A stretch of 13,034 nt of DNA from a virus. Its lineage: Duplodnaviria; Heunggongvirae; Uroviricota; Caudoviricetes. The first letter of the stretch is position 1. Each line of letters opens with the position of its first letter. Positions 823 through 13,034 of the stretch are shown one piece after another. Where the stretch lies: IMG/VR virus record IMGVR_UViG_638341084_000022, one strand, 5' to 3'. The position numbers and the translations under genes were made by a program. The notes beneath the pieces are model-generated. The model was not told where the DNA came from. It did not search any database and was given only the letters and a program-made list of their open reading frames with translations.

Positions 823-876
823 TGGCCGTTTCCGGCCTGCATGGCATGATTTGCGCTTTTGGACGGGAGATTCAGT

Positions 877-1467
877 GTGCTGATTGGTTATGTAAGGGTA
901 TCAACAAATGACCAGAATACAGACCTGCAACGAAACGCTCTTGTTTGTGCAGGATGTGAACAAATATTTGAAGATAAATTAAGCGGAACAAAGACAGACC
1001 GACCGGGATTAAAACGCGCTTTAAAGCAGCTTCAAAAAGGTGACACGCTGGTTGTCTGGAAACTGGATCGCCTTGGGCGAAGCATGAAACATCTGATTTC
1101 TCTCGTCGGAGAACTACGGGAGCGAGGGATTAATTTTCGCAGTCTGACCGACAGCATAGATACATCTTCTCCAATGGGGCGTTTTTTCTTCCACGTGATG
1201 GGTGCCCTGGCTGAAATGGAACGTGAATTAATTGTTGAACGTACACTGGCCGGACTGGCGGCAGCGCGCGCACGGGGGCGCACAGGCGGACGTCGACCGA
1301 AGCTGACAAAAGAACAGCATGAGCAAATAGCAAGGCTGATTAAAAACGGTCACGACAGAAAACAACTGGCAATAATTTACAGCATTGGTATATCGACAAT
1401 TTATCGTTACCACCCCGCAGGAGAATCAAGTGGAACAATTGAGAAGAGTAAACAAAATAACCGCTAA
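877..1467 (+). CDS. serine DNA invertase, Gin/Pin/Cin/Hin family
   Basis: Translation from GTG 877 is MLIGYVRVSTNDQNTDLQRNALVCAGCEQIFEDKLSGTKTDRPGLKRALKQLQKGDTLVVWKLDRLGRSMKHLISLVGELRERGINFRSLTDSIDTSSPMGRFFFHVMGALAEMERELIVERTLAGL..., nearly colinear with Gin/Pin as recalled, including the catalytic Ser in the VST motif. A GGGAGA Shine-Dalgarno sits 6 nt upstream of GTG 877. The ORF-track start at TTG 859 is probably too far upstream. Confidence 0.92.
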   Translation: MLIGYVRVSTNDQNTDLQRNALVCAGCEQIFEDKLSGTKTDRPGLKRALKQLQKGDTLVVWKLDRLGRSMKHLISLVGELRERGINFRSLTDSIDTSSPMGRFFFHVMGALAEMERELIVERTLAGLAAARARGRTGGRRPKLTKEQHEQIARLIKNGHDRKQLAIIYSIGISTIYRYHPAGESSGTIEKSKQNNR

Positions 1468-1495: not shown

Positions 1496-1984
1496 TCAGA
1501 ACAGCCCTTTAACGGAGCTGGCCGCGCTGTTAAGGGATGATGTGACCTTATCTTTGAAGCCGGACAGCATATCACTGAACGATGAGGATTGCAGGCGTTC
1601 CCGCAAATCCTCATCGCAGCGTTCAAGAGTCAGTGAAAACTCTATCTTTTTCGCCTTGCCGTAGCGATCAAACTCGGAACGGGTCGTATTCGTTTCAGTC
1701 AGTACATACATGCCGTAAATCTGCCCGACACCATCAATCAGAGGCCAGGGGCGTCCTGTATATGCCTGCGTGGTCAGCAACGAAAGCGACACTTCGCCAC
1801 CTGTAATTTCAGGATAAAGCACGCCGGAAAGCACGATGCGATCATCACCTGCGCCGATATACTGCCAGCTTGCTGAACGGTTAACGCGTTCATTTTTCAC
1901 ATGCCGCCAGCTTTTGTTTTGCTGTAACTGCTGATGCGGCAATGTGCGCAGCTCAAAAACAAACATGCCGTAGATCATCATCAT
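1496..1984 (-). CDS. U: P2 gpU-like tail protein
   Basis: An ORF of about 160 aa immediately downstream of the tape-measure gene, as in the P2 FETUD arrangement. Start is probably the ATG at 1984 (MMMIYGMFVFELRT...), which gives 8-nt spacing from a GAGGAG Shine-Dalgarno that overlaps the T stop. The ORF-track start at 1990 has too short a spacing. Confidence 0.8.
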   Translation of the reverse strand: MMMIYGMFVFELRTLPHQQLQQNKSWRHVKNERVNRSASWQYIGAGDDRIVLSGVLYPEITGGEVSLSLLTTQAYTGRPWPLIDGVGQIYGMYVLTETNTTRSEFDRYGKAKKIEFSLTLERCDEDLRERLQSSSFSDMLSGFKDKVTSSLNSAASSVKGLF

Positions 1985-1996
1985 GGCCATGACTCC

Positions 1997-4819
1997 TCAA
2001 TCTTTATCGTAAAAACTGCCACGCCCGGCACGGGCGCGCCGTTCCATTTCTGCCCTGACCATTTCGCCAATCAGTTTCGCCAGTTCGCGGGGATTCTGTG
2101 TAACAACGTTATGCAGATGAACATGAATTTCACCGCAAAATCCGGAGGCAACAGGCTCCCGGTTACGGGAAGTTGCAGGAACTGATGCCACTGGCGATCG
2201 TATAGCCTCCGCCACCGGGCGGGAGCTGGCCGCAACAACAGGGACCAGCGCCGGAGGCAGCGGAGCCGGAACCACGGGTGTGATAGTAATTGCGGGGGCA
2301 GGCTTACTGACCTGCGCAATCTTCCGCTCCTGCCACTCCCCACGAACAGCAAGTGCGCGGGGCAGGTTCTTAAAGACAATATCGCCGGGGCCAATGCGTT
2401 TTTTCGTCTCATCAACCAGCTTACCTGTGTTATCAGCAATTTTGCTGAGTCTGCGTAGCGTACCGGTATTGTTGTCTGTGAGCGGTTTGTTGTCTCTGGG
2501 TTTATCGCCTTTTTTGTCGTCGACCTTATCTGACGGGGCCGGGCCGGGAGTCCATGGTTTCTGAACCATTTTCTTGAGAACCGGATCCCATTCCCACATT
2601 ACAGGAGCCTTTGAAGCGTTCTCTATTTTCTTTCTCGCCCGTTCCGCTTCATCCGGAAGCACTCCGAGCTTTTCAAGTATCCACGCCAGTGAATCCATCA
2701 ATGCTTTTGTTGGCGTCAGGACAAGCTCTATCGCTCCACCGAGTACCCTGCCGAATACCTCGCCAGCACTGGTACATTTATCCAGCGTTTCCTTGCTGGA
2801 CTCCATCGGTGACAGCAGCGATTTAAACCAGTTAAAGACCTGAATAATCCCATCGCGCACGACATCAAAAACTGGACCGAACCGTTCAAAGGTTTCGCGC
2901 AACGGAGCCAGCCGTTCCATAATCCCACTGAACACCCCTGCATAAAACGCCTTGATGGGTTCCCAGTATTTCCAGATGAGAACCGCCGCAGCCACAAACG
3001 CAGCAGCAATCAATCCGACCGGGCTGAACAGCGCCCCGATAGCGCCCCCCAGTAACGAAACGGAACCCGTCACCATTCCCCATAGTGCTGGCAGGAGCCT
3101 GACAGCATTCATTGATCCGGTCAGGAGGGAAAAGCCAAGACGCAGTTTTGCCAGCGGGCCAGCAAGCACACCAATAGCCAACGACAACGAGCCGACCGTT
3201 GCAGTCATCGCCAGCAATGCCCCACCTGCAATCAGTAGCTGGCGCGTCAGTGCCGGATGGGCCTGCGCCAGCGCCGTCACCTTTGATACCACCCGCGTGA
3301 GCCACTGCGTGACAGAACGCAGCGGACCGTCAATCAGATCTGCAATGCGGATGCGCAACCCTTCCCATGCACTGCCGAGTGATTTCAGATCGCCGTCAAG
3401 GTTGTTGGCCATAACCTTTGCTGTGCGTTCAGCCTCACCGCGCGCGCCTTCAAGTTCTTTTCTCAGTTTGGGTAAGGAGCCGTCACCCGCTGCATCAACG
3501 AGCGCCATAAACGATGTGAAAGCCTCTTCTCCGGCAATGTCCTTAAAGAACGATACCCGGTCAACTTCCCCGTATTTGCGGGTGGCTTTATAAAGGTCGG
3601 CCAGTACATCCTCCATCGGGCGCATTTTGCCGTTCGCGTCAGAGACAGCCACACCCAGCTCTTTCAGCGCCTCTGCTGCCGCCTTTGGCGGTGATGCCAG
3701 ACGAGCCAGGCTGGCACGCATTGCCGTCCCGGCATCACTCCCTCTGATGCCCATATTCGCCAGCACGCCCGCCATCGCAGCGGCCTGCTCCAGCGATATT
3801 CCCAGCTTACCCGCCACCGGACCTGCATATTTCATGGTTTCGCCCAGCGCGCGAAGGTCAGTGTTGGTACGGGTAAACGCCGCTGTAAGCGTGTCGCCAA
3901 CCCGGTCCATCTGGTCAGCAGAGAGGCCGAACTGCGTCAGGATATTTGAGCCAATATCCGCCGTCTCGCCGAGATCCATACCGCCAGCCGTTGCCATGCT
4001 CAGCACGCCGGGAAGCGCAGCCTGAATGGCCTGCGGAGTAAAACCAGCCATTGCAAGAAATGCCTGTCCACTGGCGGCATCTCCAGCGGTGAACTGCGTT
4101 TCAGAGCCAAGTTTTAACGCCTGCTCACGCAGCGCCTTAAACTGTGGGCTGTTTTTGTCGATTCGCGTCAGTGCCTGAACGCGGGACATCTCTTTCCCGA
4201 ACCCAATCGCGGGCTGCAAAAAACGCCCGGCAGCATAGCCGCCCGCCGCTGCCGCACCTGTTGCCAGTGCACCACCTGTTTTCAGTTTTCCCGCGGTTTC
4301 CTGCGCGCGCGAATACCGCTCACGCGCCCGCGTTACACGCGCAAGCGCCTGCCGTTCGCGTTCAAGCTGGTTGTTGTACTGTTCGGTGCGTCTGATGGCC
4401 TGTTGAATGGTGTTATCGCTGCCTGTCAGGGAAATGCCGTGGCGTTTCAGCTCTCCGCCAAGCTCCCGCATTTTCTGAATCTCCCGTGTGCGCGATTCAT
4501 TCAGGCGTTCAAGCCGGGTGCTTAACTGCTGCATCAGCTTTTGTTGTTTTTCGCTGAGCACTGTACCCGTGTGTTGTAACTGATTAAGGGCGTTAAGCTG
4601 GCGTCGAGCTTTCAATATGCCAGCATCCGCTTTACTGACAGCGTCACGGGCGCGCTCAAATGAACGCGCCTGACGCTCGAGATTTTTGATCGCCCCCTGC
4701 GTTCGCTGGATGGAGTCACCAAACTGCCCCATCAGGCGGCGGGCGTTTTCGGCAGGCCGGGTCAGCCTGTCAACGGCGCTGAAAGCGACCCGGATATCAA
4801 GAGTCTTCATTGTCTGCAT
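1997..4819 (-). CDS. T: phage tail tape measure protein (P2 gpT-like)
   Basis: A 940-949 aa ORF with coiled-coil N-terminal part and the conserved central tape-measure region (...LTQFGLSADQMDRVGDTLTAAFTRTNTDLRALGETMKYAGPVAGKLGISLEQAAAMAGVLANMGIRGSDAGTAMRA...). It sits between the chaperone E/E' and U. Start is uncertain: GTG 4846, ATG 4819 or ATG 4810 are all possible, and the 5' end overlaps the end of the E' frame. Confidence 0.9.
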   Translation of the reverse strand: MQTMKTLDIRVAFSAVDRLTRPAENARRLMGQFGDSIQRTQGAIKNLERQARSFERARDAVSKADAGILKARRQLNALNQLQHTGTVLSEKQQKLMQQLSTRLERLNESRTREIQKMRELGGELKRHGISLTGSDNTIQQAIRRTEQYNNQLERERQALARVTRARERYSRAQETAGKLKTGGALATGAAAAGGYAAGRFLQPAIGFGKEMSRVQALTRIDKNSPQFKALREQALKLGSETQFTAGDAASGQAFLAMAGFTPQAIQAALPGVLSMATAGGMDLGETADIGSNILTQFGLSADQMDRVGDTLTAAFTRTNTDLRALGETMKYAGPVAGKLGISLEQAAAMAGVLANMGIRGSDAGTAMRASLARLASPPKAAAEALKELGVAVSDANGKMRPMEDVLADLYKATRKYGEVDRVSFFKDIAGEEAFTSFMALVDAAGDGSLPKLRKELEGARGEAERTAKVMANNLDGDLKSLGSAWEGLRIRIADLIDGPLRSVTQWLTRVVSKVTALAQAHPALTRQLLIAGGALLAMTATVGSLSLAIGVLAGPLAKLRLGFSLLTGSMNAVRLLPALWGMVTGSVSLLGGAIGALFSPVGLIAAAFVAAAVLIWKYWEPIKAFYAGVFSGIMERLAPLRETFERFGPVFDVVRDGIIQVFNWFKSLLSPMESSKETLDKCTSAGEVFGRVLGGAIELVLTPTKALMDSLAWILEKLGVLPDEAERARKKIENASKAPVMWEWDPVLKKMVQKPWTPGPAPSDKVDDKKGDKPRDNKPLTDNNTGTLRRLSKIADNTGKLVDETKKRIGPGDIVFKNLPRALAVRGEWQERKIAQVSKPAPAITITPVVPAPLPPALVPVVAASSRPVAEAIRSPVASVPATSRNREPVASGFCGEIHVHLHNVVTQNPRELAKLIGEMVRAEMERRARAGRGSFYDKD

Positions 4820-5335
4820 TCCCGCTGCGAAGTGCCGCCCGCTCACGCCAGCTAACCACTTCGCCGGGCGTCATCATGAAGATTTCGGCGGGCGACCAGT
4901 TAAAAATAACGGCAATATCCGCCACCAGATCTTCGATGTGCTCAAAGCACACCAGGGTGATTACGCTGCCGTCTCCTGCACGCTCTTCGCGCCAGAGTCT
5001 GGCTCGCTCATAAAATTTACAGCCACAGCGCACAACTGAATAAAATCGCGTGACGACATTTTTTTAATCATCACTTCATCCAGTCGTGGCGAGGTCACGC
5101 GAGGCAACAGCGTGAACATGGTATCCGCTTTCAGATTCAGCACATCAGACAGCGACAGACCACGCAGGGATCCAGCCTGTTCAATAGCCCCGGTGATCTC
5201 CACATACGTGATTTTTTCGCCACCACGCTCAATGGGTCGGGTCAGTTTTACGCCATGTTCGACAGCCATATCCTCACCTGCCGTCACATCATCCGCCACG
5301 GTGTTATTCCGGGTTTCAGTATCGATGTCTTTCAT
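4797..5335 (-). CDS. E': gpE+E' tail assembly chaperone, programmed -1 frameshift fusion product (shift at the A7 tract 5065-5059)
   Basis: The -1 frame relative to E opens immediately after a TAA at 5066-5064 and runs to a stop at 4799-4797, overlapping the T start. The shift site AUU AAA AAA AUG is at codons 91-92 of E. Position between tail tube and tape measure matches the conserved G/GT-type frameshift of tailed phages (P2 E/E'). Confidence 0.55.
4961..5335 (-). CDS. E: gpE-like tail assembly chaperone (zero-frame product)
   Basis: A 124-aa acidic ORF with a strong AAGGAG Shine-Dalgarno upstream of ATG 5335, located between FII and T as in P2. Confidence 0.7.
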   Translation of the reverse strand: MKDIDTETRNNTVADDVTAGEDMAVEHGVKLTRPIERGGEKITYVEITGAIEQAGSLRGLSLSDVLNLKADTMFTLLPRVTSPRLDEVMIKKMSSRDFIQLCAVAVNFMSEPDSGAKSVQETAA

Positions 5336-5390
5336 CAGTTTTCTCCTTTTCAGTCAGAGGCGACGCACTGCGCCGCCTGCATATTACTTA

Positions 5391-5903
5391 TCAGCCAAGC
5401 CCAAGCGCGGAACGGATACGGTCAGGCACAATGTCCTTGCCGTCCTTCCGGTAGATGTGGTTCAACAGGTCGATTTCCCACAGCGGGCGATCGTTAACGC
5501 TCAGCTTGTAGTAGGTGTTTTTGACAGCGTAAGTGTGTGATGTGGCTTCGCCCTGTTTGGCCTCCCCCATATCAATTTCCGTCACACGCCCGCGCATCTC
5601 GATTTCATACAGATCGCTTTCTGCATCGGTGTAGTATTCACCCGCAAAACGCAGCAGCGTGCCGTCAATCGTGCCGCCATATTTAAGGAACAGCGCACGA
5701 ACAGCTCCCCCCATAACAAAACTCGCATCAAGCGCGGAGTCGTCCAGACCGAGATCAATACTTACCGCCCCCATCATGCCACCACCACGATAGCTGTCGG
5801 TTTTGCGCGTCAGTTTGGGCGGCGTGACGGACGTCACCTTACCCACTTCGTTTTCACCATCCACAAACAGCGTAAAAAAGCGAAGATGTTTTGGTACAGC
5901 CAT
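5391..5903 (-). CDS. FII: phage tail tube protein (P2 gpFII-like)
   Basis: A 170-aa ORF (MAVPKHLRFFTLFVDGENEVGKVTSVTPPKLTRKTDSYRGGGMMGAVSIDLGLDD...) that resembles P2 FII as recalled, in both length and motifs. Its start codon overlaps the FI stop (TGATG). Confidence 0.9.
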   Translation of the reverse strand: MAVPKHLRFFTLFVDGENEVGKVTSVTPPKLTRKTDSYRGGGMMGAVSIDLGLDDSALDASFVMGGAVRALFLKYGGTIDGTLLRFAGEYYTDAESDLYEIEMRGRVTEIDMGEAKQGEATSHTYAVKNTYYKLSVNDRPLWEIDLLNHIYRKDGKDIVPDRIRSALGLG

Positions 5904-7087
5904 CAGGCACCTCCCAGCACCGCAAATGCGGGACCAAAGAATTCATCAGTAAACGACTGGTAAAGCTCCATGTCTTCCAGCGGCGGAACGGGCGTATATT
6001 TGTAGCGAATACGCACACGCCCCTGACGTAAATTCGTGGTGCTGTTATCCACGATGTCATACCAGCACTCCGCGCCAATCAGTTTCCCGGCAGTAACCAG
6101 TGAATCCAGTTTTGCCCTGATGGCACTGATAACATCCTTCACGTTCGCAGGCGTCAGTGGACTGTCGATGGTTTCAAACTGCGCTTCCGCAATTGAATCA
6201 GCCAGCACCTGTGCGGTTCGGGTATACACCTCAAAAATGTAGGCGTTCGTTTCCGGTGTGCGGTTGCCCCAGAAGCGGAACCCGTTGCGACGAATAATGG
6301 TCGTGATTTCTTTGTTGTTGAGGCTGTTGGCATCGCTGTCTTCGGCCTGCAACGACCAGAACACATGCCTCGACATCCCCAGCACATTTTTAACCGGAAC
6401 GTTGGACAGCGATTTGTGCCAGCCCTGCTCATGGTCAATGTACGCACGAAGGCCGCACGCATAAGCAGGCGCGGGGAACGTTTCGTTTTCGCCACTTTTC
6501 GGGTTGTAGGCGATGAAGTCCGGCCATAAGAGCATCACTTCACGTTCGTTGAATTTCTGGCGGTAGGTAATCGCTTCAGCCATCGTGTTACAGCCGTGAC
6601 ATGAGGCATACACAAATGCGCGCAGTTTACCCGCAATCACGCACAGGGATTTTGTCACCGCCTCCGTGTCCAGCTCCGGCGCGGCCAGAATACGCGGACG
6701 GTATCCGATGCTTTCATCCTGCTCTGCAACAAGCAGCGCATACATCCCCGTATAGCTGCCGTCATCCTCAGAACCACCGATAACCAGTTGATCCTGCGTC
6801 TTTCCGTCTTCTTCTTTGTGTTCAGCCACGCGAACGACGATCACCTTTGTGCTCACCTGGTCTGCGATGGCCTTAAGCGCACGATAAAGCGTCCCCGTTG
6901 TTCCGCATTTTCCCAGCACGTCATTGACGCGGGTCAGCAGTGTGGGCTTGTTCAGCGGGAACAGCTTCGCGTCCGCATCATCCGCCGTTGCCACGATACC
7001 GATAACGCTGGAATCAACATCGTTAATCGCTGTTACCAGGTCGGTATTTTCCGTAACACGGGCACCATGAAAACGAGTTTCACTCAT
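5903..7087 (-). CDS. FI: phage contractile tail sheath protein (P2 gpFI-like)
   Basis: A 394-aa ORF with motifs I recall from P2 FI (...KLRAFVYASCHG..., ...WPDFIAYNP..., ...GWHKSLSNVPV..., ...IRRNGFRFWGNRT..., ...YKYTPVPPLEDM...). Confidence 0.92.
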   Translation of the reverse strand: MSETRFHGARVTENTDLVTAINDVDSSVIGIVATADDADAKLFPLNKPTLLTRVNDVLGKCGTTGTLYRALKAIADQVSTKVIVVRVAEHKEEDGKTQDQLVIGGSEDDGSYTGMYALLVAEQDESIGYRPRILAAPELDTEAVTKSLCVIAGKLRAFVYASCHGCNTMAEAITYRQKFNEREVMLLWPDFIAYNPKSGENETFPAPAYACGLRAYIDHEQGWHKSLSNVPVKNVLGMSRHVFWSLQAEDSDANSLNNKEITTIIRRNGFRFWGNRTPETNAYIFEVYTRTAQVLADSIAEAQFETIDSPLTPANVKDVISAIRAKLDSLVTAGKLIGAECWYDIVDNSTTNLRQGRVRIRYKYTPVPPLEDMELYQSFTDEFFGPAFAVLGGA

Positions 7088-7243
7088 AGCTTCAGCCCCT
7101 TGTATCCGTTAAATGATTCGGCAACAATCATCACCCACCACGCGCGTAATCTCACCCCTGCGCCGTTCTCCCGACCCGGCGACAACAAAAAGCAGTAACC
7201 CCCTCCGCACGCACATGCGACCATGCCGCACAGGGAGGGAAAG

Positions 7244-8353
7244 ATGACCGACACCACCATGCAATTGCTCAGTCAGAGCACAGACCCCGTGAAAATGCCG
7301 GATTTTGATATTCTCGCGGAGGGTAAAACGCTGTCAGGCGTGGCAGAGCGCCTGATGAGCCTGTCACTGACCGACAACCGGGGATTTGAAGCGGACCAGC
7401 TCACCATCACGCTGGATGATGCGGATGGTCAGTTGCAGCTACCGCCACGGGGCGCGCGCCTGACGGTTCTCATTGGCTGGAAAGGCGAACCGCTGACAGA
7501 AAAAGGCTCTTACATTGTCGATGAAATCGCACACGAAGGACCGCCGGACAGGCTGACTGTTTCAGCCAGAAGCGCAGATTTTCGGGATGAATTTAACGTT
7601 AAACGTGAGGTGTCCTGGCATGATGTGACCGTTGAGCGTGTGGTATCCGCCATCGCTCATCGGTACGGTCTGAAACCGCAAATCAGCGAAATGCTGATGC
7701 ATATCGAAATCGACCACGCCGACCAGACCGAAGAAAGTGACATGTCCTTCCTTACGCGCATGGCGGAAATGCTGGGCGCAATCACCACGGTAAAAAGCGG
7801 TAATCTGTTATTCATCATGCCCGGCGGTGGCGTGAACGCACAGGGCCAGCCGTTGCCATCGTTCGCCATCACACGCAGCAGCGGCGATCGCCATCAGTTC
7901 CGCATTGCTGACCGCGAGGCGTATACGGGGGTACGCGCTTACTGGCTTGATCTTAATTACGGGAAAAAGAAAAAAGTCAGCGTGAAACGCCGCAAACCGC
8001 CAAAACCCAAAAAGGAGAAAAGCAGCAGCCGTGAAGGTGATTATATGGAAGGCGCGGAAGGCAATGTGTTTGTGTTACGCAAGACTTATCAGAACGAGCA
8101 GGCAGCAAGACGCGCAGCGGCGGCAAAGTGGCAGCAGCTACAACGCGGAGCCGCATCATTCTCCATCATGCTGGCACGCGGACGCGCAGAACTCTACCCC
8201 GAAATGCATGGCACGGTAACAGGCTTTAAAAGCGAGATTGATAATCAGGACTGGATTATTGCAAAAGCCGAGCACACCATTGATAACAGCGGCTTTACCA
8301 CACAGCTTGAGCTTGAGGCAAAAATCCCGGAATGGATAGCAGAAACAGAGTGA
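7244..8353 (+). CDS. D: P2 gpD-like tail protein (late gene D), full length
   Basis: Translation (...LSLTDNRGFEADQLTITLDDADGQ..., ...VDEIAHEGPPDRLTVSARSADFRDEFNVKREVSWHD..., ...DREAYTGVRAYWLD..., ...GEYMAGEA-like GDYMEGAEGNVF...) is colinear with P2 gpD as recalled. The second ATG at 7244 has a GGGAGGG Shine-Dalgarno; the ORF-track start at 7223 is probably too far upstream. Confidence 0.88.
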   Translation: MTDTTMQLLSQSTDPVKMPDFDILAEGKTLSGVAERLMSLSLTDNRGFEADQLTITLDDADGQLQLPPRGARLTVLIGWKGEPLTEKGSYIVDEIAHEGPPDRLTVSARSADFRDEFNVKREVSWHDVTVERVVSAIAHRYGLKPQISEMLMHIEIDHADQTEESDMSFLTRMAEMLGAITTVKSGNLLFIMPGGGVNAQGQPLPSFAITRSSGDRHQFRIADREAYTGVRAYWLDLNYGKKKKVSVKRRKPPKPKKEKSSSREGDYMEGAEGNVFVLRKTYQNEQAARRAAAAKWQQLQRGAASFSIMLARGRAELYPEMHGTVTGFKSEIDNQDWIIAKAEHTIDNSGFTTQLELEAKIPEWIAETE

Positions 8354-8421
8354 GCAACTTAGACATATTAGCTCAGACTTAAACTGGCAAGTTTACAGTA
8401 TAGAATTAAACATAAACGACG

Positions 8422-8453
8422 GTCCGCTCCGTGTCAGAAGCGGACTTTGTCAT
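8422..8453. terminator. weak hairpin between convergent D and cargo gene; possible terminator
   Basis: Stem GTCCGCT (8422-8428), 10-nt loop, stem AGCGGAC (8439-8445), followed by TTTGTCAT. The stem is short and the loop large, so this is a weak call. Confidence 0.3.
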
Positions 8454-8473
8454 CCCTATGTAAGGTTGATTGC

Positions 8474-9496
8474 TTAATACGCATTTAATTTAAATTTGTA
8501 TTTGCCTTCTATGTAATGGATAAATTCAATTATGCTTTTTTCTATCGCATCTAATATATGAATATATCCATCCCGATTTAAGGTCCTATCCAACTCAAAG
8601 TGATGAACTATCCCATGTCTATATTGTATGATTTCAGAAATTCGATTCTCAAGAAAATCAACTGATTTTCCAATTCTTTTTTTCTTATAAAGAATCGCTC
8701 TCACATCTATATCCAGCCACTCTTTATATGCTTTATTTAGGTGGGTTAAGTTTTGAAAAGTGTAATTTCTTGCAATAACACTTTCTATTGAAATATTTCC
8801 TTTCTCTATCTCAAGCAGAATATCAAAATCAACTTTTTGCTTATACGATGTTCTTTTTGCTATTGCGAAAGGATCGTACTTTATAAGTATTTGAAAAGCT
8901 CTAGAGAAAAAATATTCAAACATAGCAACCGCAAAAGGTACTAATCCATTATATATAACTCTACTGGGATCCATACATTGCATGTAATCAAAGTATTCGG
9001 ATAAGCCGCCATCTTCCGGTAGGTTTAATTTAATAGAAGGTTCAGGTAAGGCATGTTTAACAGCGGAAATCTCATGATGGACATGATTAAATATTGAAGA
9101 AATGCCACGACTGATCGGACTACTAGAATCCTTCCATAGAGGAGCGTACCTATTTTTCCCATAATCACCTATAAGTGTTCCACCAAAAAGACTCCGTGCG
9201 CCTTTTAGAACATCATTAAGCATTTTTACATCATGCCAACTAGCGCTATATAAATTACGCACATGCAATGCCCATTTATTACCAGATATGTGTAGTTCGT
9301 CATTTGAAACAGGATATATATCAGCCGAAACTCCATCTGTAGATTTGAAGTCCGTATCATCAAACCAAGAGTAATTCAACGTTCCTTGGGGCCATTCCCA
9401 CAAATGTTTACACCTTTTAAAACCTAAATTTTCAAGGTAATTTTTAAGTTCGTTTCTAGTTGCTTTTTTAGGGTACAGCGTTATATCTCTTCCCAT
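8474..9496 (-). CDS. hypothetical protein, AT-rich cargo gene inserted between D and ogr; possible HEPN-like C-terminal domain
   Basis: An uninterrupted 340-codon ORF with an AGGTGA Shine-Dalgarno about 8 nt upstream of ATG 9496. It is visibly more AT-rich than the flanking tail genes and uses AGA/ATA codons. The C-terminal region has an R-x4-H arrangement (QYRHGIVHH, residues 293-298, nt 8620-8603) followed by a predicted final helix, as in HEPN nuclease domains. I recognise no family with confidence. Confidence 0.75.
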   Translation of the reverse strand: MGRDITLYPKKATRNELKNYLENLGFKRCKHLWEWPQGTLNYSWFDDTDFKSTDGVSADIYPVSNDELHISGNKWALHVRNLYSASWHDVKMLNDVLKGARSLFGGTLIGDYGKNRYAPLWKDSSSPISRGISSIFNHVHHEISAVKHALPEPSIKLNLPEDGGLSEYFDYMQCMDPSRVIYNGLVPFAVAMFEYFFSRAFQILIKYDPFAIAKRTSYKQKVDFDILLEIEKGNISIESVIARNYTFQNLTHLNKAYKEWLDIDVRAILYKKKRIGKSVDFLENRISEIIQYRHGIVHHFELDRTLNRDGYIHILDAIEKSIIEFIHYIEGKYKFKLNAY

Positions 9497-9687
9497 GCTT
9501 TATTCACCTGATATACAATATTTTAAATTTTAACTATTATGAACGTATGAATTTTCACATTGGATGTATGGAAGTTCAACAACTATTGAAAGTTCAATTT
9601 TCACTCTTCGCACAGAGCGAGCTGTTAGTTGGAATTAGGGATCGTACAATCTAGAATAGCGGCAACACCACGTTAAGGGAGGTCGCT

Positions 9688-9948
9688 ATGTTCCGTTGTC
9701 CGCTTTGTGCCGCATCTGCCCGTATCCGCACAAGTCGTCCGGAAAATGATTCAAACACCGTGCGGCAAAAATATTACCAGTGTAACAATCTGGAATGCGG
9801 CGTATGCTTCTCAACACTGGAAGCTTTCCATAAATTCACATCGAAACACGCCTCCGGCGTTCACTCTTCAGAAGGTATCCCGTGGCATGAGCTACCAGCT
9901 TCACACAGGGGAAACAATCAGATGAGTTTGCCTTTACCTAAGAATTAA
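9688..9948 (+). CDS. ogr: Ogr/Delta-family zinc-finger late transcription activator
   Basis: MFRCPLCAASARIRTSRPENDSNTVRQKYYQCNNLECGVCFSTLEAF... carries the C-x2-C...C-x4-C zinc-binding pattern and the RTSR motif I recall from P2 Ogr. An AAGGGAGG Shine-Dalgarno sits 5 nt upstream, with a TACAAT -10-like hexamer at 9645-9650. Location downstream of D matches P2. Confidence 0.85.
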   Translation: MFRCPLCAASARIRTSRPENDSNTVRQKYYQCNNLECGVCFSTLEAFHKFTSKHASGVHSSEGIPWHELPASHRGNNQMSLPLPKN

Positions 9949-9986: not shown

Positions 9987-10138
9987 ACGCGCGGGTGCCT
10001 TTCGGCTGATGGTCGGAGGGAATACCCGAAGGCCAGATGTGGAAAGGCCCCGGAAAACACTTTTGTTTAACCGAGGCCCTAACCGTCTACCCTAAGCAAG
10101 TGAAAGGTTAGCGCCTCTCCGGAAAAGGAGCAAGTGCT

Positions 10139-10279
10139 ATGTCGCAAAAATCGCTTACAGCCATCACGTTCTGCGTGACGGTAATCCTCATCATCTGGAT
10201 GTTGCACGGTTCGCTGTGCGAAATACGGATGAGTTTCTGGGGAGCGGAGTTTGCGGCGTTCTTACAGTGTAAGCAGTAA
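10139..10279 (+). CDS. Hok/Gef-family type I toxin (46 aa small membrane peptide)
   Basis: This small ORF is not in the six-frame track (under 60 aa). Translation is MSQKSLTAITFCVTVILIIWMLHGSLCEIRMSFWGAEFAAFLQCKQ: an N-terminal transmembrane helix, then the SLCE(I/L) motif and an AAFL-x-CK tail, as in HokA/Hok as recalled. An AAGGAG Shine-Dalgarno sits 8 nt upstream. Fold-back complementarity of the mRNA ends supports a hok-type locus (see findings). Confidence 0.7.
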   Translation: MSQKSLTAITFCVTVILIIWMLHGSLCEIRMSFWGAEFAAFLQCKQ

Positions 10280-10310: not shown

Positions 10311-10360
10311 AATCGGTTGCCAGGGTAAGGTCGATAAGGCACCCTATCTCACGGCTCTAA

Positions 10361-10396
10361 ATGCAAAAATTCCATGAAACTGTGGGATTTTTGCAT
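10361..10396 (+). terminator. 13/14-bp inverted repeat hairpin; candidate 3' terminator of the hok-like transcript or an operator
   Basis: ATGCAAAAATTCCA (10361-10374), 8-nt loop, TGGGATTTTTGCAT (10383-10396), with one mismatch. The right arm contains a T5 run. It lies just downstream of the 3' fold-back element at 10336-10344. Confidence 0.35.
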
Positions 10397-10540
10397 CACT
10401 ACTGATACAGATCTGACCTTCTTTATGTCTCACTCTATACCAGCTAATCAATTGACACTTATCAATAAAAAAAAATCTGATAAAATCAAAATGTTTTGTA
10501 ACAAATATCAACTCGTATTGATCCAAAGGAGGCGGATTAC

Positions 10541-10873
10541 ATGGCATTAATCAAATGTCCTGAATGCCAGAAAGAGGTGAGCGATTCAGCATTGTATTGC
10601 CCTGCTTGCGGTAAACAAATAAAAAAACTTAAGCGTTCATTTTTTGGAAAGCTCATTAAGTGGATTTTTATATTATTTAATATTTTTATGATCTATACGC
10701 TTTTAGTTGGACTGGGAGGCACTAGTGAAATAATAAATAATGCAACATCCGATGCCGAAAAAGCCGGTGTAGTTATTGGTACAGGCTTAGGTTTAATTAC
10801 CATTGGAAGTTTATGGGTTATTGGCGATATCATTATCGGAATTTTAGTGTTTCTTACTAAACCAAAAGGATAA
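10541..10873 (+). CDS. small zinc-ribbon membrane protein (CxxC-x10-CxxC N-terminus, two predicted TM helices)
   Basis: MALIKCPECQKEVSDSALYCPACGK..., followed by two hydrophobic stretches (IKWIFILFNIFMIYTLLVGLGG and VVIGTGLGLITIGSLWVIGDIIIGILVFL). An AGGAGG Shine-Dalgarno sits 8 nt upstream. The gene is AT-rich. Confidence 0.7.
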   Translation: MALIKCPECQKEVSDSALYCPACGKQIKKLKRSFFGKLIKWIFILFNIFMIYTLLVGLGGTSEIINNATSDAEKAGVVIGTGLGLITIGSLWVIGDIIIGILVFLTKPKG

Positions 10874-10877
10874 CAAA

Positions 10878-11771
10878 ATGAAAAATATAATTTTTTCTAT
10901 AGGTGCATCATTTATATCAATTAGTGTACTGCCTGTTCACGCAGCAACTGAACATAATAACTTCAATGCAGTACTCCAGTGCCGAGCAATAGAAAATAAT
11001 AAAGACAGACTTTCTTGTTACGATAAGTCAATACAACCGACTCGAACGAAAGTTGCTGAAAAATTCGAAAGCAGAGATCAATGCCCTGATGAGAAAGATG
11101 ATGACAGACGTTTATCTTGTTATGATCGTTTTTTTTCTCCAACATTTACTCCATCTGTAAACTCAAAATCTAAAACGGAAAAGCCAGTAACAACAGAGGC
11201 TCAGCAACCAAATCTTTCTGAGATATCTAAATGCCGAGCAGAAAATGATAAAGAAGCCAGACTAAACTGCTACGATAAACTATTCCCACAGGATAAAGCT
11301 GTTCAAGCTGAATCAAAATTAGAGAAAGCCACAGATGTAGGAAAATGGCACACATCCATTACTACATCGCCAATTGATGATTCGAAAAATGTAATTTTAT
11401 CGTTAGAAAGTGATGATTATATCAGAACTCCATTTGGAGAAGCGGTTACTCCTACTCTGTTTATAGCTTGCCGAGAAAAGAAAACCGAAGTATTTCTTAG
11501 TTGGGATGTATATTTAGGCCTTGAACAAACCAGCATGCTTTATCGTCTTGATAAACAGAAAGCAGTTGAGCGAAACTGGCTAGTATCTACAGATACAAAG
11601 GCTGTTTTTTATAAAGGTAATGACATTGATTTCATCCGAAAACTAGCCAACTCAAACAAAATGTATACAAAAATAACTCCTTATAATGAGAGCCCTGTAA
11701 GTGCAACTTTCAATTTAAACGGCCTGTCAAACGCGCTAAAACCACTTCAAGCTGCTTGTAACTGGAAATAG
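10878..11771 (+). CDS. secreted protein with three tandem Cys-containing repeats (C-x8-RL[SN]CYD[KR]) and a C-terminal domain of unknown function
   Basis: Sec-type signal peptide (MKNIIFSIGASFISISVLPVHA / ATE). Repeats lie at residues 35-50, 69-84 and 119-134 (nt 10980-11279). It starts 4 nt after the zinc-ribbon gene stop, with an AAGGA Shine-Dalgarno, so is likely co-transcribed. The gene is AT-rich. Confidence 0.75.
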   Translation: MKNIIFSIGASFISISVLPVHAATEHNNFNAVLQCRAIENNKDRLSCYDKSIQPTRTKVAEKFESRDQCPDEKDDDRRLSCYDRFFSPTFTPSVNSKSKTEKPVTTEAQQPNLSEISKCRAENDKEARLNCYDKLFPQDKAVQAESKLEKATDVGKWHTSITTSPIDDSKNVILSLESDDYIRTPFGEAVTPTLFIACREKKTEVFLSWDVYLGLEQTSMLYRLDKQKAVERNWLVSTDTKAVFYKGNDIDFIRKLANSNKMYTKITPYNESPVSATFNLNGLSNALKPLQAACNWK

Positions 11772-11799
11772 CATAAATCATGTGGCTTAGCCACAATCA

Positions 11800-11841
11800 C
11801 AGATAACACAAAGCCCGTGAAAACGGGCTTTGTGTTATCTG
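11800..11841. repeat. perfect 18-bp inverted repeat with 6-nt loop (strong hairpin); possible bidirectional terminator or boundary element
   Basis: CAGATAACACAAAGCCCG (11800-11817), loop TGAAAA, CGGGCTTTGTGTTATCTG (11824-11841). It is preceded by a second small palindrome, TGTGGC-TTA-GCCACA (11781-11795). No canonical U-tract follows on either strand. Confidence 0.6.
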
Positions 11842-11982
11842 TAACTCGAAAATGTGGTCACTACGTGGACACGTGCTGATATAAATCCTTTTATATCAAT
11901 AAATTAAATCATCATTTTTTTCATCAACAAGGATTTTCACGTTTGTGTTACCTGTATGAGACGAGAGTTAACCGGACAAGTG

Positions 11983-11991
11983 TGCCATAAT
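11983..11991 (+). promoter_or_regulatory. candidate extended -10 element (TGcCATAAT) of the flk promoter
   Basis: TG at 11983-11984, then CATAAT at 11986-11991, about 48 bp upstream of the flk ATG. No good -35 hexamer is present. Confidence 0.3.
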
Positions 11992-12038
11992 CTCGCGGCC
12001 AGGCATACTTGCGAAGATTTCAGGTATAAGGATACGTA

Positions 12039-13034
12039 ATGATACAACCTATTTCCGGCCCTCCTCCTGGGCAACCACCAGGTCAGGGAGATAACCTGCC
12101 GTCTGGCGCGGGCAATCAGCCTTTATCCAGTCAGCAACGTACTTCGCTGGAAAGCTTAATGACGAAAGTGACCTCACTGACGCAACAACAAAGAGCAGAA
12201 CTGTGGGCGGGTATCAGGCACGATATTGGTCTGTCGGGAGATTCACCGCTGCTTTCGCGTCACTTCCCTGCCGCTGAGCATAATCTGGCGCAACGTCTGC
12301 TGGCCGCGCAAAAAAGCCATTCTGCCCGCCAGCTTTTAGCGCAATTAGGGGAGTATTTACGTCTGGGGAATAATCGTCAGGCGGTCACGGATTATATCCG
12401 TCATAACTTTGGTCAGACGCCGCTGAATCAGCTCTCACCGGAGCAATTAAAAACCATTCTCACCCTGTTGCAGGAAGGGAAGATGGTTATTCCGCAACCA
12501 CAGCAGCGCGAGGCGACCGACCGTCCTTTATTACCGGCGGAGCACAATGCGCTAAAACAGCTGGTGACCAAACTTGCGGCGGCAACGGGGGAACCCAGCA
12601 AACAGATCTGGCAATCGATGCTGGAACTTTCCGGGGTGAAAGATGGCGAGTTAATTCCAGCGAAACTGTTTAACCATCTGGTGACCTGGTTGCAGGCGCG
12701 CCAGACGTTAAGCCAGCAAAATACGCCGACGCTGGAATCACTACAGATGGCGCTAAAACAACCTTTAGATGCCAGTGAACTGGCGGCGTTATCGGCATAT
12801 ATCCAGCAAAAATATGGCCTTTCTGCGCAATCATCGCTTTCTTCTGCCCAGGCCGAGGATATTCTTAATCAGCTTTATCAACGGCGGGTTAAAGGGATTG
12901 ATCCGCGTGATATGCAACCGCTGCTTAATCCTTTTCCACCGATGATGGACACGTTGCAAAATATGGCAACGCGTCCCGCGCTGTGGATACTGTTAGTCGC
13001 GATTATCCTGATGCTGGTCTGGCTGGTTCGTTAG
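12039..13034 (+). CDS. flk: flagellar regulator Flk (C-terminally membrane-anchored)
   Basis: A 331-aa ORF with a Pro/Gln-rich N-terminus (MIQPISGPPPGQPPGQGDNLP...) and a C-terminal hydrophobic anchor (PALWILLVAIILMLVWLVR), matching enterobacterial Flk as recalled. An AAGGA Shine-Dalgarno sits 7 nt upstream. Typical GC-rich host codon usage. Confidence 0.75.
   Translation: MIQPISGPPPGQPPGQGDNLPSGAGNQPLSSQQRTSLESLMTKVTSLTQQQRAELWAGIRHDIGLSGDSPLLSRHFPAAEHNLAQRLLAAQKSHSARQLLAQLGEYLRLGNNRQAVTDYIRHNFGQTPLNQLSPEQLKTILTLLQEGKMVIPQPQQREATDRPLLPAEHNALKQLVTKLAAATGEPSKQIWQSMLELSGVKDGELIPAKLFNHLVTWLQARQTLSQQNTPTLESLQMALKQPLDASELAALSAYIQQKYGLSAQSSLSSAQAEDILNQLYQRRVKGIDPRDMQPLLNPFPPMMDTLQNMATRPALWILLVAIILMLVWLVR

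Follow-up and report, generated by a model that had tools for sequence, protein, structure and literature searches.

Why should a P2-like prophage carry a single AT-rich gene between its tail gene gpD and its late-gene activator ogr, on the strand opposite to both, and is this gene an anti-phage defence gene? The window, that is, the whole stretch of 13,034 nucleotides analysed here (IMG/VR record IMGVR_UViG_638341084_000022), covers the right arm of a P2-like E. coli prophage, which is complete and has inserted between pdxB and flk. In the prophage gene order the integrase adjoins pdxB and is followed by cox, replication gene A, and the portal, capsid and tail genes; the window then leads through gpD, the 340-aa open reading frame, ogr, a hok/sok module and two AT-rich genes to flk, which starts at 12039. 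A near-identical prophage record, NC_049343, is placed by ICTV in Peduoviridae, genus Gemsvirus. The lineage is only distantly related to P2, with identities of 48% for gpD and 36% for Ogr. In P2 itself D and ogr are indeed the close neighbours that the sequence-only reading took them to be, 81 bp apart and with the ogr promoter lying within this spacing. The features of the locus are as follows.

7223-8353, plus strand: gpD (tail/baseplate hub), left conserved flank of the slot (Pfam Phage_GPD, 2e-17)
8355-8363, plus strand: left junction repeat CAACTTAGA, directly 3′ of the gpD stop codon (sequence, alignment)
8364-9655, no strand assigned: inserted cargo cassette, 1,292 bp, GC 0.341 (alignments with the empty site of prophage L019 and with other cargo types; composition)
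8422-8445, minus strand: GC-rich hairpin GTCCGC...GCGGAC between the cargo stop and the gpD stop, terminator-like on both strands
8474-9496, minus strand: coding sequence of 340 aa plus stop, ATG start, RefSeq hypothetical protein WP_000532200.1
9504-9509, minus strand: Shine-Dalgarno AGGTGA, 7 nt 5′ of the ATG (read from sequence)
9629-9657, plus strand: promoter-like site for ogr, TTGGAA-17-TAGAAT, kept to the right of every cargo type
9647-9655, plus strand: right junction repeat CAATCTAGA, 7/9 identical to the left copy (sequence, alignment)
9688-9948, plus strand: ogr (late-gene activator), right conserved flank of the slot (Pfam Ogr_Delta, 1.1e-12)

Alignment with L019, a prophage of the same lineage without the insert, sets the limits of the insertion at 8364-9655, and the cassette is missing from the empty-site prophages of this lineage. 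Sliding-window GC is 0.30-0.39 over ~8350-9650 versus 0.50-0.60 on the phage side, and the GC of the cassette as a whole (0.341) contrasts with 0.55 for the late region 1496-8353 and 0.541 for gpD. The codon usage of the gene is foreign: AGA serves for 9 of its 17 Arg codons and ATA for 18 of its 32 Ile codons, compared with 2/26 and 1/20 in gpD. Hence, the AT-rich block of ~1.3 kb, its AGA/ATA bias and its one opposite-strand gene of 340 aa, all proposed from the sequence-only reading, stand as described, and the cassette holds no second gene. That reading also credited the gene with its own expression signals; the Shine-Dalgarno is in place, whereas a consensus scan of 9497-9687 found no minus-strand promoter for the gene. 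The hairpin at 8422-8445 starts 29 nt beyond the cargo stop codon, ahead of gpD. No Rfam match was found inside the cassette, and repeats near the gene were short ones at chance level only.

The gene is not a constant feature of its site. One or both of this lineage's gpD and ogr genes were found in 1,202 of 5,426 complete E. coli genomes, and in a spread sample of 60 records the junction is empty, spanning 755-757 bp, in most of those that have both genes. The HEPN cassette, as we call it in view of the C-terminal domain described below, occupies the D-ogr slot in 65 of the 5,426 genomes (~1.2%), with the gene intact, at least 95% identical and chromosomal in all of them. Elsewhere the slot takes other genes, namely a 304-aa TIR/SEFIR protein matching the PADLOC bSEFIR model at 1.4e-44 (5 genomes), unknown proteins of 221 aa (54-58 genomes), 384 aa (20 genomes) and 201 aa (8 genomes), and an alpha/beta hydrolase with no known link to defence (6 genomes). 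As to conserved occupancy of the junction, the site is mostly empty in related prophages and elsewhere held by other single genes. The flanks are the same for all cargo types, the promoter-like segment of ogr is kept on the right, and minus-strand cargoes have a similar hairpin on the left; in the bSEFIR cassette it lies at the same position. As judged from these alignments, the shared flank elements are a signature of cassette exchange between conserved flanks, and the D-ogr junction is a cargo slot exchanged between otherwise near-identical prophages. A structural phage gene was considered as a candidate and rejected: canonical P2 and most related prophages are empty at this position, and thus the 340-aa gene is not structural, in agreement with the sequence-only reading.

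P2 has two well-known hotspots, A-Q (old/tin) and Z/fun, and a third one beside a tail gene has been described in general terms (bioRxiv 10.1101/2024.10.15.618418). Since P2 hotspots are already on record, the D-ogr slot is a refinement and not a discovery. Like the cargo genes old, tin and fun, the gene is an AT-rich accessory gene that lies between conserved phage genes, is swapped as a cassette, opposes the late operons and comes with its own Shine-Dalgarno and a terminator-like hairpin. However, this cassette sits at the D-ogr junction instead of A-Q or Z/fun, and the D-ogr slot is mostly empty, whereas in P2 no main hotspot was ever found empty.

The encoded protein is divided as follows.

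9047-9496, minus strand: N-terminal alpha+beta domain, aa 1-150, no Pfam family
8963-9046, minus strand: variable linker, aa 151-178, conservation 0.41, the lowest in the protein
8477-8962, minus strand: HEPN domain, aa 179-340, RiboL-PSP-HEPN family PF18735
8603-8620, minus strand: codons of the Rx4H catalytic motif, R293-H294-G-I-V-H298 (read from sequence)

Conservation reaches 0.69-0.74 in each of the two domains versus 0.41 in the linker, and the N-terminal domain is conserved as strongly as the HEPN domain. The HEPN signature R293-x4-H298 had been picked out from the sequence-only reading, and its numbering is right because QYRHGIVHH starts at residue 291. All 51 diverse members, some with as little as 19% identity, have R293 and H298, and at least 90% of them keep H294. 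G55 and D89 in the N-terminal domain, E194 and F247 are invariant as well, N94, F104-G105-G106, G113, N183 and Q248 are near-invariant, and F247-Q248-N forms a conserved motif of the HEPN domain. Taken alone, the window protein scores below the gathering threshold of PF18735 (E 1.2e-4; 22.5 bits versus 28.4), with aa 181-329 aligned on profile positions 29-189 of 191. On the other hand, 36 of its 51 diverse relatives match this profile, at best with E 4.3e-10, and a precomputed match is present in most close homologues. Membership of PF18735 thus holds for the family and not for the query by itself.

An AlphaFold2 model built from 40 homologues (pLDDT 80.6, pTM 0.72) gives a HEPN fold for the C-terminal half (aa ~179-340), with the alpha-helical bundle core present and the Rx4H motif ahead of helix 308-333. 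Together with the profile matches of the relatives, this model upholds the HEPN-like C-terminus suggested at the outset. The accompanying remark that the first 200 residues belong to no family was right as to the family and too generous as to the length, the unmatched stretch being ~150 residues. Neither the protein alone nor a profile of 51 sequences matched any PDB sequence at E <= 10, and Foldseek against PDB and against BFVD returned nothing at E <= 1e-3. Two ideas about the N-terminal domain were dropped: a divergent L-PSP/RidA domain found no support, and apparent fusions of the domain to other effectors were frameshifted or truncated metagenome proteins.

A 2013 catalogue lists the Ribo L-PSP-HEPN domain family as a distant relation of AbiD/AbiF and as bearing an active motif (Anantharaman et al., PMC3710099). 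The C-terminal domain of the 340-aa protein resembles this family in covering nearly the whole profile and in its Rx4-6H motif with a polar residue after Arg. However, the founders of the family carry a fused endoRNase L-PSP domain or share an operon with ParB, whereas the 340-aa protein has an unrelated alpha+beta domain of ~150 aa and no L-PSP, ParB or operon partner. Similar in plan are lactococcal AbiD/AbiF, AbiJ, ApeA, PD-T4-5 and PD-T7-3, in which one gene joins an N-terminal non-catalytic domain to a C-terminal HEPN domain; such single-gene HEPN Abi or defence proteins likewise reside in islands or prophages, among them the hotspots of P2-like prophages. They differ from the present protein in their N-terminal domain, and no PADLOC model of them matches it in sequence. 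With PADLOC 2.0.0 there was no match at E <= 1 for the window protein and no relevant one at E <= 0.1 among the 51 relatives. One review places PD-T4-2, PD-T4-5, PD-T7-3 and ApeA under PF18735; since their PADLOC models miss it, the 340-aa family would be at most a distant cousin of these proteins. NCBIfam gave no match for the window protein, PHROG gave a single marginal one of unknown function (E 0.092), and a literature search on RiboL-PSP, PF18735, L-PSP-HEPN and WP_000532200 found no functional study and no paper on this protein. The class of effector, the logic of a single HEPN gene and the residence in a prophage hotspot are all familiar; there is no earlier description of the N-terminal domain, of the family with its fixed two-domain layout or of its extreme conservation.

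The gene is most likely a putative defence gene against phages, of a general type already known. The reading that we prefer, and hold with moderate confidence, is that of a single-protein HEPN RNase of the abortive-infection type, which would have a new sensor or substrate domain and act as lysogenic-conversion cargo. HEPN proteins that offer functional analogies are PrrC, RnlA, HepT, Cas13 and Csm6. A metal-independent endoRNase activity from a dimeric composite site is a trait of the HEPN superfamily, and we infer it for the 340-aa protein by carrying this trait over; RNA cleavage as such, dimerisation, autoinhibition, a trigger and a phenotype against phages are likewise what we infer by analogy. 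According to this model, the gene would be transcribed from its own putative promoter, in the direction opposite to the late genes, and would for this reason be expressed in the lysogen. The protein would stay inactive until an infecting phage supplies a cue, and the N-terminal alpha+beta domain may gate the nuclease by reading this cue or by positioning the RNA substrate. Two HEPN domains would then pair and build a composite Rx4H site, which would cut RNA of the cell or of the phage (tRNA, rRNA or mRNA) in a reaction that needs no metal ions, and cleavage would halt translation and abort the infection.

The distribution of the family bears on this reading and on its rivals. The gene had been called an orphan, and this label was wrong, since a search of 5.8 billion proteins found 295 homologues and the family is widespread and very conserved. 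The best 120 of the 295 are full-length (~340 aa), 64-99% identical, and come from Pantoea, Proteus, Shewanella, Aeromonas, Pseudomonas, Methylococcaceae and Halochromatium. When 1.84 billion cluster representatives were scanned exhaustively with HMMER, 284 clusters matched at E <= 1e-3, and the two-domain layout of ~340 aa persists to ~20% identity. A pattern-based scan of one genome for each of 185,579 species, built on the closer alignment A1, gave 33 loci with 37-100% identity, at least 20 of them above 60%. Loci occur in Gamma-, Beta- and Deltaproteobacteria, Bacteroidota, Gemmatimonadota and Acidobacteriota, and further ones in Spirochaetia, Latescibacterota, Cyanobacteria, Verrucomicrobia and one Patescibacteria MAG; close full-length homologues with 56-88% identity are found in at least 10 bacterial phyla. 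In all 27 loci with usable flanks the GC of the gene is below that of its surroundings. Taken together, this conservation, the spread over phyla and the AT-rich bias point to strong purifying selection and wide horizontal transfer of the 340-aa family.

The neighbourhoods of the homologues are diverse. In Pantoea the homologue lies in a lambdoid prophage that also bears a SIR2 gene, in Pseudomonas in an integrase/AlpA/DUF927 integrative element, and elsewhere in an island next to smpB that also contains AbiTii, two integrase genes and a type I RM system; one homologue adjoins an HNH gene. Within 3.3 kb in 27 genomes we found retron RT-VI (2), ResIII (4), Mrr (2) and AAA_21 (2), as well as type I RM subunits, a STALD protein, integrases and transposases. 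These raw counts, which carry no background rate, suggest the usual company of defence genes. Some homologues, on the other side, lie amid metabolic genes with no defence or mobile element in view, and it is these loci that give some ground to a mobile HEPN RNase without any defensive role, which would serve RNA processing or a stress response, or regulate transcripts of its carrier element, as ordinary accessory cargo. High conservation across phyla, with the N-terminal domain at the level of the HEPN domain, would also fit a universally conserved cellular RNA or protein target of such an enzyme, and the D-ogr slot does accept the alpha/beta hydrolase. However, the patchy distribution (65 of 5,426 E. 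coli genomes and, in the pattern-based scan, 33 loci in 185,579 species) and the foreign composition of the gene everywhere it was measured (27/27 loci) argue against this. Moreover, the gene repeatedly has RM systems, retrons, Abi genes or integrases as neighbours and shares its slot with the bSEFIR gene, and a housekeeping role predicts a stable synteny of which none was seen across the 27 loci. We therefore regard a non-defensive RNase as unlikely, though it is the rival that survives best.

The same neighbourhoods speak to the question of a partner. Nine independent contexts with Pfam-annotated neighbours have no partner in common, and when the 144 neighbour proteins of 27 further genomes were compared with one another by BLAST, all against all, no neighbour family recurred in more than 2 of 27 loci. 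A partner or antitoxin gene was rejected, the neighbours being different in every lineage. Likewise rejected was an RNA antitoxin or leader, as the cassette has no Rfam match and no upstream element of the gene is conserved across genera. Neither an adjacent nor a fused MNT nucleotidyltransferase antitoxin was found, and the protein has no NTP-transferase domain. These features set it apart from HepT/MntA (type VII), in which HepT is less than half as large and has its MNT antitoxin, and from C. difficile AbiF, reported as a type III-like system with an RNA antitoxin, since no conserved ncRNA or repeats lie beside the 340-aa gene. Because a shared partner, an upstream RNA and meaningful repeats are all lacking, a toxin-antitoxin or multi-gene system is unlikely on sequence grounds, and the gene appears to be a stand-alone module that is always solitary. 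Another reading is an addiction toxin that stabilises the prophage, or a toxin of inter-element competition that excludes P2-like phages or P4-type satellites, instead of a defence against unrelated phages. However, no antitoxin accompanies the gene, be it MNT, a recurrent neighbour, a conserved upstream RNA or an Rfam match in the cassette, and many homologues are chromosomal with no recognisable prophage. We consider such a toxin improbable.

A further reading is a phage counter-defence or host-takeover factor, acting in the prophage's own lytic cycle as an RNase that degrades, for example, host RNAs or nucleotide immune signals. Against it, the gene is opposed to the late operons, with its own Shine-Dalgarno and with the hairpin 8422-8445 set before gpD. 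In addition, outside E. coli the gene mostly lies elsewhere than in phages, and in IMG/VR it was found on only 7 contigs, a count built, like the 33 loci, on the closer alignment A1. Such a role is very unlikely. A catalytically inert HEPN-fold protein that serves as ligand binder or scaffold hardly deserves credence, for although the original definition of HEPN was that of a fold binding nucleotides, and inactive HEPN families are many, this family is listed with an active motif (PMC3710099), even relatives at 19% identity keep R293 and H298 without exception and H294 almost so, and E194, N183 and F247-Q248-N are conserved.

The single-protein defence RNase that we prefer is supported by the real insertion, by the HEPN family, fold and invariant motif, by the fixed architecture, by the lack of a partner, and by the cargo-slot and defence-or-mobile contexts. 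Against defence, identities of 60-70% across phyla are unusually high for a sensor engaged in an arms race with phages. Because conservation across phyla is so high, it may be speculated that the N-terminal domain recognises something universal (RNA, the ribosome or a core phage feature) and not a fast-evolving phage protein. A broader proposal, which we put forward tentatively, combines these points: the 340-aa proteins may constitute a family of single-protein immune RNases that spans phyla and has not been catalogued, in which an undescribed and unusually conserved alpha+beta domain would sense a conserved cue, such as the state of host RNA or ribosomes or a core phage component, and switch on a HEPN domain of the RiboL-PSP type; separately, the D-ogr junction would be a discrete slot for defence cassettes, and its 221-, 384- and 201-aa occupants would be new defence genes.

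If the defence role is true, a compact single-gene HEPN system would be added to the immune repertoire of E. coli, in which ~1.2% of complete genomes carry the gene, and a near-identical architecture exists in at least 10 phyla. A function would also be assigned to an unannotated and highly conserved N-terminal domain, and the D-ogr junction of P2-like prophages would be a small, cleanly bounded cassette slot that holds three further unknown genes. Moreover, if the sensor reads a universal feature, this family would contrast usefully with sensors that bind phage proteins and evolve fast.

On the gpD side of the D-ogr slot, the cargo junction that holds the HEPN gene, the tail genes are divergent from gpD, in the opposite orientation to the F operon of P2, and are followed by an invertase gene that immediately adjoins gpU and then by tail-fibre fragments. 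This layout was identical in all related prophages examined. Invertases with adjacent inverted genes have been described at the Z/fun hotspot of P2 (preprint 10.1101/2024.10.15.618418).

1496-7087, minus strand: tail genes FI-FII-E-E'-T-U
859-1467, plus strand: serine DNA invertase gene
332-751: tail-fibre fragments

On the other side, a hok/sok-type toxin-antitoxin module lies immediately after ogr, and ogr was followed by hok in every prophage of the lineage, regardless of integration at serS, ihfA, tRNA-Leu or flk. Between hok and flk lies a second AT-rich island with two genes. Among the loci examined, both genes were confined to the HEPN-carrying prophage at pdxB-flk, and lineage members integrated elsewhere lacked them.

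9993-10152: sok RNA (sub-threshold Rfam match, 51.9 bits against a gathering score of 59)
about 10139-10279: hok/gef coding sequence
10350-12000: second AT-rich island, GC 0.36
10541-10873: zinc-ribbon membrane-like protein (phrog_6586)
10878-11771: VasI/TagO-like protein (Pfam VasI, 2.6e-25)

The 5′ region of the HEPN gene contains a short direct repeat (TGGAAGTTCAA / TGAAAGTTCAA, 9569-9597, 18 bp spacing). It may function as an operator or as a promoter element, or it may have arisen by chance.

In the set of 27 genomes sampled for neighbours of HEPN homologues, a retron type VI reverse transcriptase (L027 6965-7954; PADLOC RT_VI, 3.1e-97) is located about 2 kb upstream of the 88%-identical homologue in Hafnia paralvei, and such a reverse transcriptase was also present at one further locus. 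An apparent Firmicutes homologue was rejected. It lies on a 4,211 bp contig (L026, DEQA01000038.1) of the metagenome-assembled genome 'Planococcaceae bacterium UBA3378'. This contig encodes HEPN, gpD-fragment, zinc-ribbon and TagO-like proteins that match their counterparts in the E. coli prophage at 100% identity, and its ogr is only 74% identical. Judged from these sequence identities, the contig is almost certainly E. coli contamination.

In the E. coli prophage to which the window belongs, the A-Q hotspot (L066 3963-5238), a classic defence site flanked by replication gene A and portal gene Q, encodes a ParM-like segregation ATPase together with a 'plasmid partitioning/stability' protein, and a recognised defence system was absent from this hotspot. 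In other prophages of the lineage, the D-ogr slot is occupied by different cargo, counted here among 5,426 complete E. coli genomes.

L015 2149-2814: 221-aa protein, 54-58 genomes
L018 2073-3227: 384-aa protein, 20 genomes
L016 2107-2712: 201-aa protein, 8 genomes
L017 2081-2839: alpha/beta hydrolase, 6 genomes
L014 2092-3006: bSEFIR-type TIR protein, 5 genomes

Searches of the 221-, 384- and 201-aa proteins against Pfam and PADLOC gave no match. Because of their location in the D-ogr slot, these three proteins are candidates for defence functions.
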